Origin: Acidobacteriaceae bacterium
GTDB taxonomy: Bacteria > Acidobacteriota > Terriglobia > Terriglobales > Acidobacteriaceae
NCBI GenBank assembly: GCA_003131635.1
Contig: PKVZ01000024.1
Location: 1,605 to 65,604, forward strand
Reading direction: 5' to 3'
DNA: 64,000 nucleotides
In this document: in pieces, positions 24,001-42,000 of the stretch
How positions within the stretch are numbered: the stretch's first letter is position 1
Layout of the letters: the number at the start of each line of letters is the position of its first letter
Position numbers: made by a program

Positions 24001-27000
24001 GCATTCGGCGCGGCAAGAGTTCCCGACCAGGAATCGTTTCCGTCGGTTGCCACGTAGAAATCTGCTCCTGTGCCTCCGCCACTTTGACCACCGCCGCCGC
24101 CGTTTCCGCCGCCCCCAGATCCCCCGTTGCCCGTGCCTCCGCTACCGCTGCTGCCTGAGGACCCTGGGGTAGAAACTCCGCTACAACCTGCCAAGACGAA
24201 AAGACCAAGAACCACGACAGATAATGCAAGGATCGTAATAGGGGACGACTTGCGCATCTTGGGGCTCCGTTGGCTCACGCCTGGGATGTCCCGAGATTAG
24301 CCGAAAGCCGCGCCAAGTCACGGTTACCGCCGGACAACAACGAGCCGGGATTAGCTCATTGTCCCGACGTTTCTAAAGGCCATTCCATGAAAGATTTGGA
24401 TCGAAGAATGTAGCGATGGAAGGGGAATGAAAGGCGAATCGGCAGAGAAACAAACGGAAGGTAATCGGGCAGAAAAACTGCGCGGGCCTGGAAACGGAGG
24501 AAGAAACTACGGCGGAAACTTTACAGCTTTGACTTGGAGGCCGCACTTCTATGAATCGCCGCGGGTAGCTTGAGATAGCCACTCAACTTCTCCGCGACGA
24601 GGTTCACGTTGGGTTCGGTGAACATCGAGGGGTGATTACCAGGAATTGAATAGAAGTCGATGCCGCCCGCGACCAGATCTTTCCATCCCAGTTTGAAATC
24701 GAAGTAAGGACCGATCGGCCACTCACTGGATTGCTGCAGCACAATCTTTCCAGGATACGGCTGCGGTTCATAGCGGCTGAATGCGGGGTGAACAATGGAA
24801 TCCGTATTGCGCAGGCGCTCTTCGCCCGTATGGTCGGAAGTAAGCCGCCAAGCTACCCGCTCGATTTTTCTTCTGGCTTCGTCCAACCGGTCCAGCAGAT
24901 AGGCGGAAGTCTCGCTCGCGTCCAGCTTCAGCAGATTGGACAAATGATATTTAATGCGCGAGGAATAGCGGCCGTCCTTGAAGGGATTTTTGTAGTAGGC
25001 CTGATTATGAGCGTCCAGCATGGCCAGCAGCGCTACTTCCTCGCCGTCCCGAACCAGTTGCTGCGCGATTTCATAAGCGATGACCGCGTTTACGCACAAG
25101 CCGCCAAGATAATAGGGTCCCTTGGGTTGCACTTCACGCATCACCCTGATCAGCAACGCGGCGATGTCTTCAAACCTGTAAGGAACCGGCAACCTGTTGC
25201 CATCGGTGAAGGGCAAGTCGAGTCCGAGGAACGGTTGATGAGGCCCCAACTTCTGCGCCAGCAGACGAAACCGCGGACCGCCGCGAACCCAAAACAGCGG
25301 CGGCAGAGATCCCTTCGGCTGGATCGCGACGATCACGCGCTCTCGCAGAGTTTGTCCGGCGCTGAGCAGTGATTCCGCCATCTGCTCGATGGTCGGCGAT
25401 TGAAATACGAAGGCAAGCGATAGGGACCTGCCGAATTCTTTTTCAATGCGCGCTAACAGCTTGGCTGCAAGCAAGGAGTGTCCGCCCAGTTCGAAGAAAT
25501 CCTGCCCGACGTCTTCACTGTGGGTGCCAAGAACGCTCTTCCAGATCACGAGCAGCCGCTTCTCGATGTCGTTACGAGGGACAGTGAGTTCGTGTCTTGT
25601 GTTTTCCCCGGCGGCACTTTCGGCCATCAGCTTTTGGCGATCGACTTTTCCATTCGGCGTGCGCGGAAGGTTCTCCCGGAAATGGAACGCCGTGGGCACC
25701 ATGTAGCCAGGCAAAGTGTTTTTCAAAAAAGCTCGCAGTTCGTTGCTGGAAGTCGAGTGCTCGGCGCGGGCGATCACAAAGGCCGCCAGCTTGGGATCGC
25801 CCGATCCGTTGCGTTGCGTAATCACCGCCGCTTCCCGGATATCCGGGTACGCCGCCAGCGCCGCTTCGATCTCCCCGAGTTCGATGCGCACACCGCGGAT
25901 CTTCACTTGCTGATCCGCACGCCCTAGAAATTCGAGGTTTCCGTCGGCCAGATGACGGACCAAGTCACCGGTGCGATAAAGCTTAGCGCCGGGCGCTTCG
26001 GCGAAAGGATTTGGAATGAAATTCAGCTCAGTCAGGTCGGGTCGATTTACATAGCCTCGCGCCACTCCGTCGCCGCCGATGTACAGCTCTCCTGACACCC
26101 CGAACGGCACGGGCTGTAAATTTCGATCAAGCACGTAGAGTTGCGTGTTGGTGATGGGGCGGCCGATAGGAACCGTGGGCCCGGTCTCTCCCGGTTCGCA
26201 CTCATACACGCTGCTCCACACCGTCGCTTCCGTCGGGCCGTACTCGTTGAACAGAGACGCCTGCGGCAGAACGCGGTAGTGAGCGTCCACCAACTGCCGC
26301 GGACAAGCCTCGCCCGCAACAATCACGCAACGCAGCGAAGCCAGTTGTGCAGCCCCCGCATGCTCCAACAAGTCGCCATAGAGGCTGGGAAAGGTCAGGA
26401 CGTGGGTGACGTGCCTCTCCGCAATTAAAGTGGCAAGTTGCTCAGGCGCCCAACCAGAGTCACCGGGAGGTGGAATCTCGAGGGTTCCACCGCTGGTGAG
26501 CGCATGAAAAATTCCGGCGACGGAGCTGTCAAAAGCGTAGGACGAAAGCAGGAGAAAGCTCTTTACCGGATCGGTGTAGTAATTGAGGCGGGCGTGGTTG
26601 GAGTGGGCGAGATTGCGATGAGTTACCTGCACTCCCTTGGGCCCGCCAGCAGAACCCGACGTGTAAATTATGTAGGCCAGATCATCGAGACTCGCGGAAG
26701 CCTGAGCCCGCCGCCGCGAGGCGACTGGAACCTGCCAATTGGCGGAATCAAGAAAGACGGTGCGCATTCCGCGAGATGCAGAGGAGAACTGGGCAGCGGC
26801 AGTGTCCGACGTCGTGAGCAGCACAATAGCGCCACAATCGGCCCTCATGAATTCGATTCGCTCCGCAGGGTACGCAGGATCGAGCGGGACGTAAGCGCCA
26901 CCGGCCTTCAGAATCCCGAGAATGCCGACAATCATTTCCGCCGAGCGCTCCAAGCACATCGCTACCGCAATGTCGGGACCTACTCCCAGCGTCCGCAGAT

Positions 27001-39000: not shown

Positions 39001-42000
39001 CCCGGGAAATTCGCTCAACATCGACCACGGAATTATTTTTGTTCCGTTGCTGGATTTCGCCGCTTCCTCCGTCATTACGCAAAACTCCAGCAACGCCAGC
39101 GTAGATTGGTCCAGTCCGCGGCGCTTGTCCTCTTTCGTGATCAATGCGCGAATGCCGCAATTACCGATGATGTAGCCCACGCGGTCGGGCGGCGCTTGCG
39201 GATCGAGCGGTACATAAACTGCGCCCGCCTTCACTACCCCCAGCATCGAGATCACCGACTCGACGCACTTGGGAAAGTACAATCCCACGCGGTCGCCCTT
39301 CTTGATTCCGTGCCGCCGCAATAAATGCGCCAACTGATTCGAACGCTCGTCGAGTTCCCGGTAGGTGATGCTGCGTCCCCGCGCCCACACCGCCGTCTTC
39401 TCGGGATGGAGCGCCGCGCTCTTGGTCAAAAGCTGCTGCAGTATGTATGCCATGTCCGTCCTAGGTGCAAGGATTCGGGGGGTTTTGCAAATACTTAGAG
39501 CCCATGAAACCCGGCAATAATCACTCTCTGAATCTCGGAAGTTCCCGAGTAGAGTTTGCCGGAAATTGCGTCCCGCAGATCGCGCTCCATCTCGTACTCG
39601 GTCATATAGCCGTAACCGCCATGGATCTGGATCGCATCGAGGCAACTCTGCACGCAGGCTTCACTCACGTAAAGTTTAGCCATGGAAGCCTCGCGCAACG
39701 CATGCCGCCCCTGACTCTTCAGCCAGGCAGCTTTGTAAACCAGCAAGCGGCCGCTTTCGAGCCGTACTTCCATGTCGGCGATCTTGTTGCCGATGGCGGA
39801 ATACTTTCCGATCGGCTCGCCGAACTGCCGCCGTTCTCGCGCGTACTTCACGCAGGTTTCCTGCAGCCTTTGCATCATTCCAAGATGGCTGGCCAGAATG
39901 CAGGTGCGTTCCCACTCCATCGAATGCGTGAAGATAGCCTGCCCGCTGCCCTCTTTGCCCAAAATATTTTCCGCCGGCACTTCGCAATCCACCAGCGCAA
40001 CTTCCGACATGGGCGAAGTGCGCAGCCCCATCTTGTGCAACTTCTGCCCGACCACCAAGCCCGGCGTTCCCTTCTCGATCAGAAACCCGGTAACTCCGTT
40101 CGCGCCCTTCGACGGATCCACATTCGCGAACACAATAAAAAGATCGCCGTAGATCGTGTTGGTGATGAACGTCTTGCTGCCATTGATCACATAGCGGTCG
40201 CCCTTGCGTTCCGCCCGAGTCTTCAGGCTGTAGGCGTCCGAACCGGAACCCGGCTCGGTCATGCAGTGCAGCCCGATCCATTCCCCGCTGATCAACTTCG
40301 GCAGGTACCGGCGTTTCTGCTCTTCGGTGCCGAACGCCATCAACGGAATCTCCGTGGTCCACATGTGCGCGTTCAAGGAGAAAAGAAATCCGTTGTCTTT
40401 GCAGCCGTACCCCAGAGCTTCCAAGGCGCAGACCGTGGTCAGCGTGTCGGCGCCGCCACCGCCATATTCCGGCGGAACCGGCAATCCCTGAATTCCAAAC
40501 GCAGCGCATTTTTTCCAGAAGTCAAACGGAAACTCCTCGTCGCGGTCCCGCCTGGCGACGTCATCGTTCAACTCTTCCTTCGCGAACCGAATCACTTCCT
40601 TGCGAAACGCCGCCTGCTCTTCACTCCAGGAAAAATCCAATGTTCTTTCTCTCTTCCCCGCTTACGCGCGAGCTTTCGGACCCGGAGTCTGTTGGTCCGA
40701 GGCTTCACTTTTGTTCTCGTGCTGCGAATTATTTTTCACGCCGTTGCCCTGGCCGTTTGTCGGTTCACCGGTCTTTTGCCCCGGCTGGATTGCTCTCCAG
40801 GCGAACTTCTTGGGTTTGCCCCCCGGCAGCTTGATTCGCGCAGGCACTCCCATGATCGTCGTATTGTCCGGCACGTCCGTCAGCACCACGCTGTTGGCAA
40901 CCACGACCACATTGTTTCCAATCTTAGCGTCCCCAATAATCTTGCAGCCCGCGCCAAAATAAACGTTATCGCCCACGCTGCGGCACCCGGAACCGATCAG
41001 CACACCCGAGGTAAACGTGCAGTTGGCGCCAATCTTCACCGGCGGGATGAATATTCCGTAGGGCGTATGAATGATCATGCCCGGCCCGATTTCTGCGTCC
41101 GGGGAGATAAAAATGCCAAAAAACATCTGGTTCAGCCGCTGCCAGATCAGGGCCGGAATCAAAAGCAATTGCCGGATCACCGGGATATGCACATGCAATA
41201 CCCAATGGGAATAGCGGTAGCACACAATGGCCGGCGTCTCGATGCGCAGCAGCACACGCCACAGCCCCCGCTCCAGCTTTCGGTGACCCATGGCTGCCTG
41301 GAAATCCGCGCGCAGATTGTCGAACATTTTATTGAGTCCTTACATTCCTAAAACTTCTATCAAACACCTCAACCGACTGCCAGGCCAATCGCGCCGCAGC
41401 GGATGAATGCCACTTTCCTAACTTAGAGCTTGTCGTAAATGGATTGCGGAATGGGGAAGGTTCGTTGGTTCAAAACCGCGCCCAGCACCCGCACCTTGGC
41501 CGCCCGCAGATCGTGCATGGCCCCCCGTGCGCTCTCCCGCCGCGAGCTGTTCGCTTTCAGCACCAGCACCAGTCCGTCTGTAACCGCCCCCAGCACGGTG
41601 GCGTCATTGCTCGAACTGATCGCCGGCGTATCGATCAAGACATAATCGAATTCCGACCTGAGTTCCGTCATCCTCTCGCGCATCCGGTCCGACGATAGTA
41701 AGCTTTGCCCATCTTCGGCGGGCGAGCCAGAGCTGACCAGCCACAACCTCGGGCAGGACAGCGGCTGCGCAAAGCTCCGAATCGGCTCTCGCTTGCGGAG
41801 CGCATCGGTCAGCCCATACGCATTCTCCGTGGCAAATTGCGCATTTAATCCCGGACTTCGCAGGTTCGCATCCACCAGGCAAACCGTGCCAGAGACCTGA
41901 CCGGCCAACACTTCCGCCACCCGCGCACACACCCAGCTGCAACCATTTTCTGGCTCCGTGCCGGCGAACACCACAGTCCGCGGCGCATCGTTTCCAGGCA

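Follow-up and report, generated by a model that had tools for sequence, protein, structure and literature searches.

A. baumannii possesses an operon for a ligase, an ACAD, an ACP and a C-A-T-TE protein, which gives rise to Ac-505 and has an influence on biofilm and motility (PMC5376624). The TE domain of AB3403, which is encoded in this operon, has a Cys nucleophile and an Asp at the usual position (PMC11298585). In the case of clorobiocin, a carrier-tethered pyrrole-2-carboxyl group is transferred to a sugar hydroxyl (PMC11218499), and lipid-linked repeat units are acylated by LbH enzymes of the WcaB type (PMC8313283). For NRPS genes that are interleaved with exopolysaccharide (EPS) genes in the way described here, the original prediction knew of no described example, and a literature search likewise found none.

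The window, i.e., the whole stretch of 64,000 nt that was analyzed, stems from a peat-soil Candidatus Sulfotelmatobacter (Acidobacteriota). All gene and domain assignments were recovered with Pfam and NCBIfam, and the predicted gene order on the minus strand from 43.5 to 21.7 kb was borne out. Unless stated otherwise, all genes given below are on this strand. The head of the array is a NusG paralog (42873-43472; Pfam NusG), an operon-specific antiterminator of the UpxY type, which passed the NCBIfam model NF033644 with 121.9 bits at a cutoff of 100. It is followed by a small Fis-type HTH protein (42352-42729; PF02954 HTH_8, E 9e-14) and by a BY-kinase-like P-loop protein (41423-42226), which stayed below the cutoffs of TIGR01007 (87 bits) and TIGR03018 (85 bits). 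The latter had been called degenerate, and indeed Cys replaces the Walker A Lys, Asn takes the place of the second Asp in DxD, and the sequence has no Tyr cluster.

The genes of the array are tightly packed, as had been noticed before. The A-T and P450 genes overlap by 1 nt (TAGTG, 35473-35477), the P450 and A-T-TE genes overlap by 4 nt (ATGA, 34180-34183), and the remaining intergenic gaps comprise 21-157 nt, with 242 nt ahead of the last gene. Terminator-like sites were not found in the gaps of the array, and there was no excess of such sites. A single same-strand array with an UpxY-type NusG in first position, short, terminator-free gaps and two overlaps supports the reading that the NRPS units work within the EPS pathway, where they acylate the repeat unit on its lipid carrier prior to flipping, a reading towards which we lean slightly. 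NusG paralogs of the LoaP family also drive long secondary-metabolite operons, which would agree with a different reading. In this case the NRPS genes would produce one or several small free molecules whose only tie to EPS is joint expression in biofilm or matrix production, and the flippase and the GT4 would serve only the polysaccharide. We regard this as possible, but rather unlikely.

The first carrier-linked genes are preceded by an LbH (hexapeptide) acyltransferase of the EpsC/CysE/WcaB type (40662-41327; Hexapep; EpsC 88 bits, WcaB 60 bits). Next are a prolyl-carrier-protein dehydrogenase-like flavoenzyme with ACAD fold (39495-40640), a stand-alone adenylating enzyme of the Pro type (37843-39453), and a stand-alone carrier protein of 93 aa (37510-37791; PP-binding, E 8e-5), which has the DSL phosphopantetheine site within VIDSLG. 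The best PDB match of the ACAD was the prolyl-ACP dehydrogenase 4irn with 500 bits, followed by a butyryl-CoA dehydrogenase with 325 bits, and its best NCBIfam matches, RedW (432 bits) and PigA (426 bits), were below cutoff. The best single-domain PDB match of the adenylating enzyme was 6o6e, an L-proline--[L-prolyl-carrier protein] ligase (355 bits), and its code of ten residues, DLFYLALVCK, was identical in 21 of 21 orthologs. The trio is a putative prolyl-oxidation cassette that travels with the LbH acyltransferase: the acyltransferase was found only where the trio occurs, and ACAD-A-CP was alongside in all loci with visible upstream sequence.

The A-T didomain (35475-37352; Pfam) carries the code DAWFLGNVVK, which is the commonest Leu code (PMC12283262) and was unchanged in 32 of 32 and in 63 of 66 relatives. 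It is followed by a cytochrome P450 (34180-35475; PF00067) with the heme motif FGYAAHFCFG, and by an A-T-TE protein (31496-34183; Pfam). The code of the latter, DIEDIGTVIK, is of a basic (Lys/Arg-like) type and resembles the Lys codes DIEDVGSVVK and DTEDVGTVVK, and the triad of its Ser TE (GYSFG / D / H) is conserved. The C-A-T-TE protein (24521-28618; Pfam) has an intact HHLVFDG motif, the His-type code DSA[T/L]IAEVWK (compare the His code DSALIAEVWK), and a TE with a Cys nucleophile, the motifs of which (GLCVN / D / H) were invariant among orthologs. Thus, all three NRPS proteins are single modules and two have their own TE, as had been proposed, and a motif scan of the window agreed that MbtH and PPTase signatures are absent.

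The ACAD, A, carrier and C-A-T-TE(Cys) genes mirror the A. baumannii operon for the small, lipopeptide-like Ac-505, and the C-A-T-TE protein aligned to AB3403 (4zxh) end to end, including the TE. Both observations speak for a small molecule, and the first also speaks against a role in the EPS pathway. The TE triads, which are canonical and ordinary and would allow plain hydrolysis or cyclisation in both domains, likewise favour a small molecule and count against the EPS pathway. The product might be a dipeptide, (hydroxy)Leu-His or Leu-Lys, an N-acyl amino acid, or a reactive acyl species that leaves the Cys TE. The specificity codes were frozen although the A-domain identity falls to 48-60%, and the codes of the partner modules vary by lineage (Lys/Arg-, His-, Val-, Ser- and Gly-like). 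Such a combination is expected for a diversifying surface structure and, thus, supports the EPS pathway. In one relative (L065) the second module has a Gly code and a Cys TE and is AB3403-like, in line with a small molecule.

A-T, P450 and TE together are a known layout for the production of free beta-hydroxy amino acids, and in the glycopeptide and nikkomycin pathways the amino acid is loaded, oxidised and hydrolysed off. The window has the same layout, which counts against an EPS function. P450 and A-T-TE might only act as suppliers of a free hydroxylated amino acid that is consumed at another place in the cell, in which case their EPS surroundings would be incidental. The P450 gene overlaps or is fused to an A-T-TE or C-A-T-TE gene (P450 and the following NRPS module form one protein in L007, L009 and L036), and the A-T-TE lacks a C domain and on its own cannot make a peptide, both of which would fit. 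Nevertheless, such a supply role is very improbable. Two loci (L022, L024) contain A-T-TE without the P450, which would result in a futile cycle of loading and hydrolysis, and the gene that invariably accompanies the P450 is A-T(Leu) rather than the TE module. In addition, the P450 is nearest to BioI (3ejb, the best PDB match) and polyketide-type P450s, no carrier-linked amino-acid beta-hydroxylase was named among its best 60 PDB matches, and the persistent EPS context would be left unexplained. The invariant core is A-T(Leu), P450 and a C domain, and the TE modules are outside of it. The original prediction, which had assigned the transfer to the TE domains, was supported in part: the interleaving and the single modules stood, and the core shifted to A-T(Leu)/P450/C.

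Between the two TE modules lie a Wzx-like (MOP/PST) flippase candidate (30009-31415; 468 aa, about 10-11 predicted TM segments) and a GT4-family glycosyltransferase with an ATG start (28687-29970; Glycos_transf_1 / Glyco_trans_4_4), the product of which is also called on 24 public contigs. The flippase had been called a Wzx flippase, and this held insofar as the protein is polytopic and the sole candidate, but it did not itself match any Pfam or PDB entry. The Wzx-like assignment is based on matches to PF13440 (E 1e-9) in 3 of 14 diverged members of the family, on the JGI name, and on the fact that it is the sole polytopic membrane protein of the window besides Wzy.

The remainder of the Wzx/Wzy-type EPS locus (868-16777; Pfam, NCBIfam) encodes Wza (15956-16777), Wzz (14303-15901), an AAA ATPase (13183-14256), the initiating sugar transferase (PGT; 11620-13056), which passed TIGR03025, two GDSL proteins, Wzy_C (6836-8401), a carbamoyltransferase (4731-6518), a WecG GT (3870-4676), an epimerase/dehydratase (2785-3921) and two sulfotransferases (868-2798). 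Apart from the PGT, the best NCBIfam matches of the EPS genes were XrtA/PEP-CTERM-associated families, all below cutoff. A plus-strand gene (17348-21643) interrupts the locus in the window, which weakens the case for one pathway; in relatives, Wza-Wzz-ATPase-PGT directly follow C-A-T-TE.

The window thus holds PGT, Wzy, Wzz and Wza and only one Wzx candidate, which supports the EPS pathway. It also argues against the view that NRPS, GT4 and the MOP-family protein produce a separate, exported glycosylated peptide or glycolipopeptide, with the "flippase" as its exporter and not as the Wzx of the EPS. This view could draw on the missing direct Wzx-family match, on the location of the flippase gene about 50-100 nt after a TE module in loci with the order of the window (type A), in PGT-first loci (type B) and in L031, on flippase-GT fusions in L065 and other loci, and on L030, in which flippase and GT4 move together. 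However, orthologs of flippase and GT4 (the latter with 46-62% identity) occur in NRPS-free EPS loci, which also hold flippase-GT fusions, and type B loci place the GT4 ortholog kilobases away from the NRPS genes. A separate exported glycopeptide is therefore improbable.

The conservation of the association was analyzed from two sides. The relatives are, without exception, MAGs or contigs from metagenomes, and they were annotated mostly by tblastn. With the flippase as anchor, species-representative genomes yielded 64 species-level loci from Acidobacteriota, and these NRPS genes adjoin the flippase in 35 of them, in at least four arrangements. The exact interleaved order of the window, with flippase and GT4 between A-T-TE and C-A-T-TE, was found in 21 other species-level loci, and variants in many more, so that the interleaving is not a matter of chance. 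The order PGT-(trio)-A-T-P450-C-A-T-TE-flippase occurred in 11 loci, and L031 and L065 contain further sandwich arrangements. The NRPS-linked flippases group in a single clade, except for two isolated cases within NRPS-free clades. NRPS genes were absent from 28 related EPS loci, and L030 has kept the flippase-GT4 pair alone, so that the NRPS part is accessory. This counts against the EPS pathway, and the self-sufficient EPS machinery of such relatives is compatible with a small molecule.

The P450-anchored metagenome scan revealed more than 576 relatives, of which 80 were examined, 46 with enough flank to judge. Of these 46 informative cases, at least 40 had the A-T(Leu)/P450 pair inside an EPS locus. 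EPS genes were located within the NRPS block in 28 of the 80 loci, e.g., a PGT between trio and A-T, Wza-Wzz between C and C-A-T, or flippase, GT4 and CE4 between TE and C. Together, well over a hundred related loci hold a mix of NRPS and EPS genes in shuffled orders. Seen from both anchors, these loci show an old association that has re-formed in many gene orders, and its conservation from the flippase side and from the NRPS side supports the EPS pathway. A merely co-expressed small molecule would leave unexplained that the cassette, when sought from the NRPS side, is nearly confined to EPS loci and that the linkage re-formed with PGT, Wza-Wzz, CE4, GT4 or flippase between NRPS genes. Furthermore, the Wzx-like protein is the only candidate for a dedicated exporter in the window. 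The shuffled mix suggests, but does not prove, an unusual amino-acid decoration of a sugar polymer by an undescribed route.

In some loci the NRPS part consists of just A-T, P450 and a C domain on its own. One of them, L144, lies inside an EPS operon and lacks a second A, T or TE. The C domain of L144 must therefore use an acceptor other than a carrier-bound one, which supports the EPS pathway and is not explained by a small molecule. In the NodB-type route, a cytoplasmic deacetylase exposes a sugar amine. CE4 deacetylases without signal peptides, i.e., cytoplasmic ones, were found among the NRPS genes of many relatives, again in agreement with the EPS pathway. Together with the lone C domains they point to a possible aminolysis by a sugar amine at the C domain or TE, as an alternative to transfer by TE alone. 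The window contains neither a CE4 deacetylase nor a sugar aminotransferase, and, thus, no obvious amine acceptor, which is a point against the EPS pathway, as is the fact that a glycan acceptor cannot be demonstrated from sequence for any enzyme of the locus.

Next to the observed gene and domain content, catalytic motifs, codes and persistent association, we infer the following chemical steps and acceptor for an EPS pathway, all placed at the cytoplasmic face. The A-T would load Leu, the neighbouring P450 would oxidise it on the carrier, and the C domain would couple it to a partner amino acid, here of the His type on C-A-T-TE. A basic amino acid would be loaded by A-T-TE. The trio would generate a prolyl thioester in oxidised form (pyrroline- or pyrrole-carboxyl), which the co-inherited LbH acyltransferase would pass on; the precedents of clorobiocin and of the WcaB-type enzymes are in favour of such transfers. 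The phosphoglycosyltransferase and the GTs would assemble the undecaprenyl-linked repeat unit, and acylation of its hydroxyl or amino groups would fall to both TE domains, to the LbH enzyme and, in relatives, to the free-standing C domain. The adjacent flippase would carry the decorated unit over the membrane, prior to polymerisation by Wzy and export via Wza. The predicted product is a sulfated, carbamoylated EPS with aminoacyl and peptidyl side groups of cationic or heteroaromatic character.

The last gene of the array encodes a beta-helix lipoprotein (21756-24278). Its assignment was upheld by an LAGC lipobox and a weak Beta_helix match (E 0.0027). The gene follows C-A-T-TE only in a part of the clade and is variably present among relatives.

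The gene inventory of the window was compiled from an ORF listing and profile searches (Pfam, NCBIfam), and it reproduced the minus-strand gene order of the original prediction. The array starts with a NusG paralog (42873-43472), which passed the cutoff of the UpxY antiterminator family (121.9 versus 100 bits). It is followed by a Fis-type HTH protein (42352-42729), a BY-kinase-like protein (41423-42226), a hexapeptide (LbH) acyltransferase (40662-41327), and a trio of an ACAD-fold enzyme (39495-40640), a stand-alone adenylating enzyme (37843-39453) and a carrier protein of 93 aa (37510-37791). 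Further downstream are an A-T protein (35475-37352), a P450 (34180-35475) and an A-T-TE protein (31496-34183), all assigned by profile search, and a polytopic membrane protein of 468 aa from the ORF listing, the flippase candidate (30009-31415). The profile searches then gave a GT4 (28687-29970), a C-A-T-TE protein (24521-28618) and a lipoprotein with a weak beta-helix match (21756-24278). The two predicted overlaps, TAGTG at 35473-35477 and ATGA at 34180-34183, were both found, and the A-T and P450 genes thus share 1 nt. The remaining intergenic gaps have 21-157 nt, and 242 nt lie ahead of the beta-helix gene. A promoter and terminator scan gave counts not above the shuffle expectation and none in the intergenic gaps, which is compatible with a single transcript and no proof of one.

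The view that the BY-kinase is degenerate was borne out, i.e., the Walker A Lys is replaced by Cys, the DxD motif reads DAN, and the Tyr cluster is absent. The Walker A region of this protein (41423-42226) has the sequence EPENGCS, and no tyrosine cluster is present at its C-terminus. Lacking this lysine and these tyrosines, the protein does not qualify as the active BY-kinase partner of a Wzx/Wzy pathway. The gene is conserved beside the initiating sugar transferase (PGT) in relatives, and the protein is probably a pseudokinase or an adaptor. As had been stated, a motif scan of the 64 kb revealed no signature of an MbtH-like protein or a PPTase; the PPTase that primes the carriers may be encoded elsewhere in the genome. 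For GT4, a TTG start was discarded after an exact look-up without a match, and the called gene has an ATG start at 29970. Around 29270-29345 it contains a low-complexity insert, PDPGPREAGPREAGSRDAASKESGSKGGSAG, in which a short direct repeat occurs; the insert apparently separates the N- and C-terminal halves.

The NRPS genes are surrounded by a full Wzx/Wzy-type EPS locus, also on the minus strand. It comprises Wza (15956-16777; Poly_export and SLBB), Wzz (14303-15901; Wzz profile), an AAA ATPase (13183-14256; Pfam), the initiating sugar transferase (11620-13056; Bac_transf and CoA_binding_3, TIGR03025 with 416 bits versus a cutoff of 296) and a Wzy_C protein (6836-8401). Pfam also revealed two GDSL proteins, a WecG-type GT and an epimerase/dehydratase in the downstream EPS part. 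In addition, two sulfotransferases (868-2798) and a NodU/CmcH-type carbamoyltransferase (4731-6518) were found with Pfam, from which a sulfated and carbamoylated EPS is predicted. Sulfated EPS is not commonly known from bacteria other than cyanobacteria.

Only two polytopic membrane proteins are encoded in the 64 kb, the Wzy-like protein and the 468-aa protein, and therefore the latter is the sole Wzx candidate in the window. A profile search gave no Pfam match for it, even at E<=10, and none against PDB sequences. Among its relatives at 31-49% identity, three of 14 matched PF13440 Polysacc_synt_3 (best E 1e-9), the homologous part of a protein in the related locus L065 matched the same family at E 2e-9, and JGI names the relatives O-antigen/teichoic acid exporters. 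The Wzx assignment is thus supported indirectly, through diverged relatives. About 10-11 hydrophobic segments were predicted, compared to about 12 TM helices of the MOP fold, and an AlphaFold2 model based on a 13-sequence alignment was poor (pLDDT 46.7). In L065 (10022-12529) the flippase homolog and a GT4-family glycosyltransferase form a single protein of 835 aa (Polysacc_synt_3 and Glycos_transf_1), and flippase-GT fusions were also seen in L066-L070, L044, L051 and L053. The fused GT of the L065 type is a paralog distinct from the GT4 of the window.

The substrates of the NRPS A domains were predicted from their specificity codes. The ten-residue codes were extracted against PheA, and the PheA control returned DAWTIAAICK. 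In the alignment to PheA, the Asp235/Lys517 pair for alpha-amino acids was recovered in each of the four A domains, and TIGR01733 was passed. The Ser sites of the carriers are intact (the three T domains read GGHSL and the free carrier IDSLG, with PP-binding matches), and so are the HHxxxDG motif of the C domain (HHLVFDG, kept in orthologs) and the heme loop of the P450. The A-T protein has the code DAWFLGNVVK, the commonest Leu code (PMC12283262). The C-A-T-TE code, DSA[T/L]IAEVWK, agrees with the His code DSALIAEVWK at 9-10 of ten positions. The code of A-T-TE, DIEDIGTVIK, is near the Lys codes DIEDVGSVVK and DTEDVGTVVK, and it also fits the acidic-pocket pattern reported for Arg. A verbatim literature search found only the Leu code, the near-His code and the Lys-like relatives; for the Pro-type code DLFYLALVCK it gave no match.

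The best single-domain PDB match of the stand-alone adenylating enzyme was 6o6e, an L-proline--[L-prolyl-carrier protein] ligase, with 355 bits, compared to 250-285 bits for other single A domains. The best PDB match of the ACAD was the prolyl-ACP dehydrogenase 4irn (500 bits), and the next was a generic ACAD (325 bits). Its best NCBIfam matches, RedW (432, cutoff 650) and PigA (426, cutoff 500), are both prolyl-PCP dehydrogenases and were both below cutoff. Because the ACAD is nearest to a prolyl-ACP dehydrogenase and the A enzyme to a proline--carrier ligase, these genes and the carrier probably form a prolyl-oxidation cassette of the kind known from PltF/PltL/PltE, CloN4/CloN5/CloN3 and AnaC/AnaD/AnaB, here called the prolyl trio. 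Its predicted product is a pyrroline- (2-electron) or pyrrole-carboxyl (4-electron) thioester; we take 4irn to be the anatoxin-pathway enzyme AnaB, which goes no further than pyrroline-5-carboxyl.

The two thioesterases differ in their nucleophiles. The A-T-TE thioesterase has a Ser (triad GYSFG/D/H, conserved across orthologs), and that of C-A-T-TE has a Cys (triad GLCVN/D/H, invariant in orthologs). In the latter the Asp is found 27 residues past the Cys (LAMLDAH), presumably the usual spacing, as for Ser80/Asp107 of the surfactin TE, i.e., position I after beta6. The TE of AB3403 from A. baumannii also has its Asp at position I, and ObiF1 and SulM differ in this respect (PMC11298585). AB3403 (4zxh) was the only solved structure that aligned with C-A-T-TE through the TE. 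A Cys thioesterase forming beta-lactones or beta-lactams, as in ObiF1 and SulM, was rejected, because the Cys is present but the Asp has not moved to the post-beta7 loop (position II). In addition, the match to ObiF1 spans only C-A-T and ends ahead of the TE.

The best solved relative of the P450 was BioI (296 bits; 3ejb, which we take to be its complex with acyl-ACP), followed by polyketide and other CYP107-type enzymes. No known aminoacyl-carrier beta-hydroxylase was recognized among the best 60 matches listed. The P450 gene adjoins the A-T gene in every locus examined except L022 and L024, both of which lack it. These are otherwise complete window-type loci, in which A-T is directly followed by A-T-TE. 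The oxidation step is thus dispensable in some lineages. In three relatives the P450 is fused in frame to the next NRPS module, namely as P450-A-T-TE (1314-1325 aa; L007, 5976-9953, and L009, 6030-9974) or as P450-C-A-T-TE (1797 aa; L036, 4558-9951), to our knowledge a rare architecture.

Whether the interleaving of NRPS and EPS genes occurs in relatives was analyzed from two anchors. For the flippase scan, one genome per species was used and the loci were mapped with domain-level tblastn. All relatives were MAGs or metagenome contigs, some of them frameshifted, and most context calls are tblastn matches to window proteins. The scan yielded 64 Acidobacteriota loci with flippase identities of 31-97%; the homologs at 97% are labelled Candidatus Sulfotelmatobacter or Acidobacteriaceae, and the GT4 product is identical on 24 public contigs. 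The predicted interleaving was retained in 21 of the 64 loci, which keep the order LbH-ACAD-A-CP-(A-T)-P450-(A-T-TE)-flippase-GT4-(C-A-T-TE). In about half of these 21 loci Wza-Wzz-ATPase-PGT directly follow. The window's beta-helix gene and its plus-strand gene for the Ig protein thus represent a clade-specific insertion. A different order, BYK-PGT-(trio)-(A-T)-P450-(C-A-T-TE)-flippase (BYK, BY-kinase-like gene), followed by GH10, Wzy, GT4, and sulfo- and carbamoyltransferases, was found in 11 of the 64 loci. One of them is L036 with its 1797-aa fusion of P450 and C-A-T-TE. L031 has the order Wzz-BYK-PGT-(A-T)-P450-(A-T-TE)-flippase-CE4-(C-A-T-TE). In L065 (flippase identity 35%) it is (A-T)-P450-free C-unknown-flippase::GT fusion-(C-A-T-TE), and the C-A-T-TE protein has a Gly code and a Cys TE. 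The A-domain codes were invariant even at 48-60% A-domain identity.

EPS genes were present and NRPS genes absent in 28 of the 64 loci, and L030 kept the flippase-GT4 pair alone. In the latter, a single MAG, the pair (9935-12613; flippase 77%, GT4 69% identity) is found among FG-GAP/Ig/PPIase-type genes, and no NRPS or other EPS genes were detected within 10 kb. In a neighbour-joining tree of the flippases the NRPS-linked proteins grouped in a single clade, except for two that stand isolated within NRPS-free clades.

For the second anchor, an alignment of the P450 was used to search metagenome contigs. It yielded more than 576 relatives, and the best 80 were mapped. A-T(Leu) and P450 were adjacent in all of these 80. 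Homologs of the window EPS genes were found beside or inside the NRPS block in 39 of the 46 loci among the best 80 that have at least 3 kb of flank, and for L139, apparently a negative case among the 46, Pfam revealed GT2-Wzx-Wzy-TIG-CE4 directly upstream. EPS genes were located inside the NRPS block in 28 of the 80 mapped loci. Their arrangements were new: PGT was placed between the prolyl trio and A-T, flippase-(GT4)-CE4 between TE and C, or Wza-Wzz-CE4-CE4 between a C domain and C-A-T, and two-module versions (C-A-T-C-A-T-TE) also occurred. In L144 the set is reduced to A-T, P450 and a free-standing C domain, which lie between PGT and epimerase-GT4-flippase. The Leu code was fixed (63 of 66), and the codes of the partner modules varied by lineage (Lys/Arg-, His-, Val-, Ser- and Gly-like). 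The LbH gene was found only together with the prolyl trio in both comparisons.

Two additional genes were observed in the related loci. The first encodes CE4 deacetylases of about 270 aa and lies between flippase and C-A-T-TE or directly upstream of A-T (L031, 11408-12268; L087, L088, L090-L092, L094, L097-L099, L104, L132, L139 and L144). In NRPS-free loci it is found just upstream of the GT4 ortholog, and none is present in the window. The CE4 proteins have neither a signal peptide nor a TM segment and are therefore cytoplasmic. The second encodes a protein of 374-385 aa without a Pfam match, which accompanies loci whose A-T/P450/C set has no TE (L065, 476-1633 and 8804-9928; L057, about 7924-9074; L105, L109, L110, L122, L124, L132, L134 and L144). 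A role of this protein as an alternative enzyme for release or transfer is conceivable.

The association of NRPS and EPS genes thus recurs from either anchor and has been re-formed in many gene orders. It is real and old, and the many orders seen from both anchors indicate genes of one pathway, not two abutting clusters. NRPS enzymes are cytoplasmic, and the undecaprenyl-linked repeat unit is likewise assembled in the cytoplasm. Flipping is the step after repeat-unit assembly, and no gene is linked more tightly to the off-loading modules than that of the flippase. Where the C domain stands alone (L144), an acceptor other than a carrier-bound one is needed, and the cytoplasmic CE4 enzymes would expose sugar amines. 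We lean slightly towards an acylation by the NRPS units, ahead of flipping, of either the lipid-linked repeat unit or a nucleotide sugar. This reading is favored because of the shared cytoplasmic site, the linkage to the flippase, the lone C domains and the cytoplasmic CE4 enzymes. A minor rival, which we regard as quite improbable, is that a separate glycosylated peptide is exported by the MOP protein.

Acylation before flipping would proceed as follows. (Hydroxy)leucyl-peptidyl, basic aminoacyl and oxidized prolyl groups would be transferred in the cytoplasm from their carriers to the undecaprenyl-linked repeat unit. The catalysts would be the TE domains, to which the original prediction had assigned this role, and also free-standing C domains and the LbH enzyme. 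In many lineages the acceptor would be a sugar amine exposed by CE4, and a co-evolving Wzx would then flip the decorated unit. The amino-acid part would diversify among lineages as the sugars of O-antigens do. The chances are about even that all of this holds jointly, i.e., that NRPS chemistry serves as Wzx/Wzy tailoring in widespread peat and soil Acidobacteriota and yields a peptide-decorated, sulfated "peptido-EPS".

Precedents exist for the separate steps, namely Dlt alanylation, the NodB/NodA logic, clorobiocin and WcaB. The Dlt system (DltA adenylating enzyme, DltC carrier, DltB and DltD) D-alanylates teichoic acids and alters the surface charge, and thus also uses an A enzyme and a small carrier to place an amino acid on a cell-surface glycopolymer. 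The stand-alone A enzyme and both NRPS A domains of the window reached 250-340 bits on DltA models, below the family cutoffs. A Dlt-like system was rejected, because neither DltB (MBOAT) nor DltD was found in the Pfam scans and the only polytopic proteins are the Wzy-like protein and the flippase candidate. In contrast to Dlt, the transfer would be cytoplasmic and before flipping, and the window encodes full NRPS modules with C, TE and P450. In Nod factor synthesis a sugar amine is set free by NodB, a CE4 enzyme of the cytoplasm, and is then N-acylated by NodA from the carrier NodF. The signal-less CE4 genes among the NRPS genes of many relatives, though not of the window itself, resemble this arrangement. 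However, no NodA homolog was seen, the donor would be aminoacyl or peptidyl instead of fatty acyl, and the acceptor would be a polymer repeat unit instead of a chito-oligosaccharide signal.

Amino acids are hydroxylated by A-T proteins with a P450 (and TE) in NovH/NovI, NikP1/NikQ and BpsD/OxyD/Bhp, and VibH is a free-standing C domain that uses soluble amines. The window has the same immediate succession of A-T and P450 with a TE in the unit, and relatives have free-standing C domains, but the context is an EPS operon and not an antibiotic or siderophore cluster. XrtA/PEP-CTERM loci also carry uncharacterized genes for adenylating enzymes and carriers, and the stand-alone A enzyme reached 358 bits on TIGR03098 (AMP-ligase), below the curated cutoff. 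The window EPS core had its best matches to the XrtA export, chain-length, ATPase and kinase families. Membership was rejected, as TIGR03027, 03007, 03015 and 03018 were best but below cutoff and no exosortase-like polytopic protein is encoded in the window; in addition, XrtA loci lack NRPS modules with C, TE and P450. The prolyl trio has its counterpart in clorobiocin and coumermycin synthesis, i.e., an A enzyme (CloN4), a carrier (CloN5) and an ACAD-type dehydrogenase (CloN3). For clorobiocin, the carrier-bound pyrrole-2-carboxyl group is transferred to the 3'-OH of a deoxysugar (PMC11218499; PMC8748450). There, the acceptor is a small-molecule glycoside and the transferase is CloN7, in contrast to the co-inherited LbH candidate of the window. 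WcaB-type LbH enzymes are reported to acylate a colanic-acid repeat unit (cited in PMC8313283).

A close parallel to the enzyme set leads to the main rival, a small peptide that is merely co-expressed with the EPS genes. The A1S_0112-0119 operon of A. baumannii (acyl ligase, ACAD, ACP and the C-A-T-TE protein AB3403) produces Ac-505, a free compound, and has an effect on biofilm and motility (PMC5376624). Like the window, it combines a ligase, an ACAD, a free carrier and a single C-A-T-TE with a Cys TE (PMC11298585). Further points against EPS acylation are that the TE triads are ordinary, the window has neither a CE4 nor an aminotransferase gene, many related EPS loci need no NRPS, and A-T, P450 and TE can just release a free hydroxy-amino acid. 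The last point also weakens the argument that a lone A-T-TE would run a futile cycle unless its acceptor is not water; L022 and L024, which lack the P450 gene, still lend it some force. On the other side, the A. baumannii operon lies outside a polysaccharide locus, has an efflux pump and its own PPTase, and uses a fatty-acid ligase. Overall, a co-expressed small peptide appears rather unlikely.

The individual parts of this EPS locus are standard; what departs from the standard is how they are combined and that the combination has persisted. Full-text literature searches, both on Acidobacteria and more widely, yielded no account of NRPS modules within Wzx/Wzy EPS loci, and the nearest case was Collimonas with two separate loci. 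We regard the system as a variant of known carrier-dependent glycan tailoring, and the chance that its tailoring chemistry is of a new kind is substantial. If the NRPS units decorate the polymer, it would be the first thiotemplate-tailored exopolysaccharide, a new route to cationic, hydroxylated or heteroaromatic amino-acid groups on a bacterial surface glycan, and a new off-loading class for TE and C domains with glycan or lipid-linked acceptors. Metagenomes of peat, palsa, bog and forest soil are rich in the organisms that have these loci, i.e., Candidatus Sulfotelmatobacter and other Terriglobia, and the chemistry of their matrix matters for how such soils bind metals and protons, retain water and stabilize carbon. 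Genome mining will split such loci or rate them as small orphan NRPS clusters beside "saccharide" regions, and treating NRPS and EPS genes as one unit alters the prioritization. If the product is a free peptide, the tight and ancient coupling to matrix production is still a useful handle on acidobacterial biofilms.

On the plus strand, the gene at 17348-21643 encodes a secreted-type protein of 1431 aa with ASH/Cep192/HYDIN-like Ig domains and interrupts the locus, with the C-A-T-TE and beta-helix genes on one side and Wza on the other. Relatives in which Wza directly follows C-A-T-TE lack the gene at that position, but paralogs of it were repeatedly seen in the vicinity of these loci. Upstream of the NusG gene, at 43778-55911 on the minus strand, a run of large secreted-type proteins was found, i.e., PPIase-like and FG-GAP proteins, NHL/beta-propeller proteins with Ig domains, and three proteins of 587-665 aa without a family. 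Homologs of these proteins recur beside the EPS loci of relatives.
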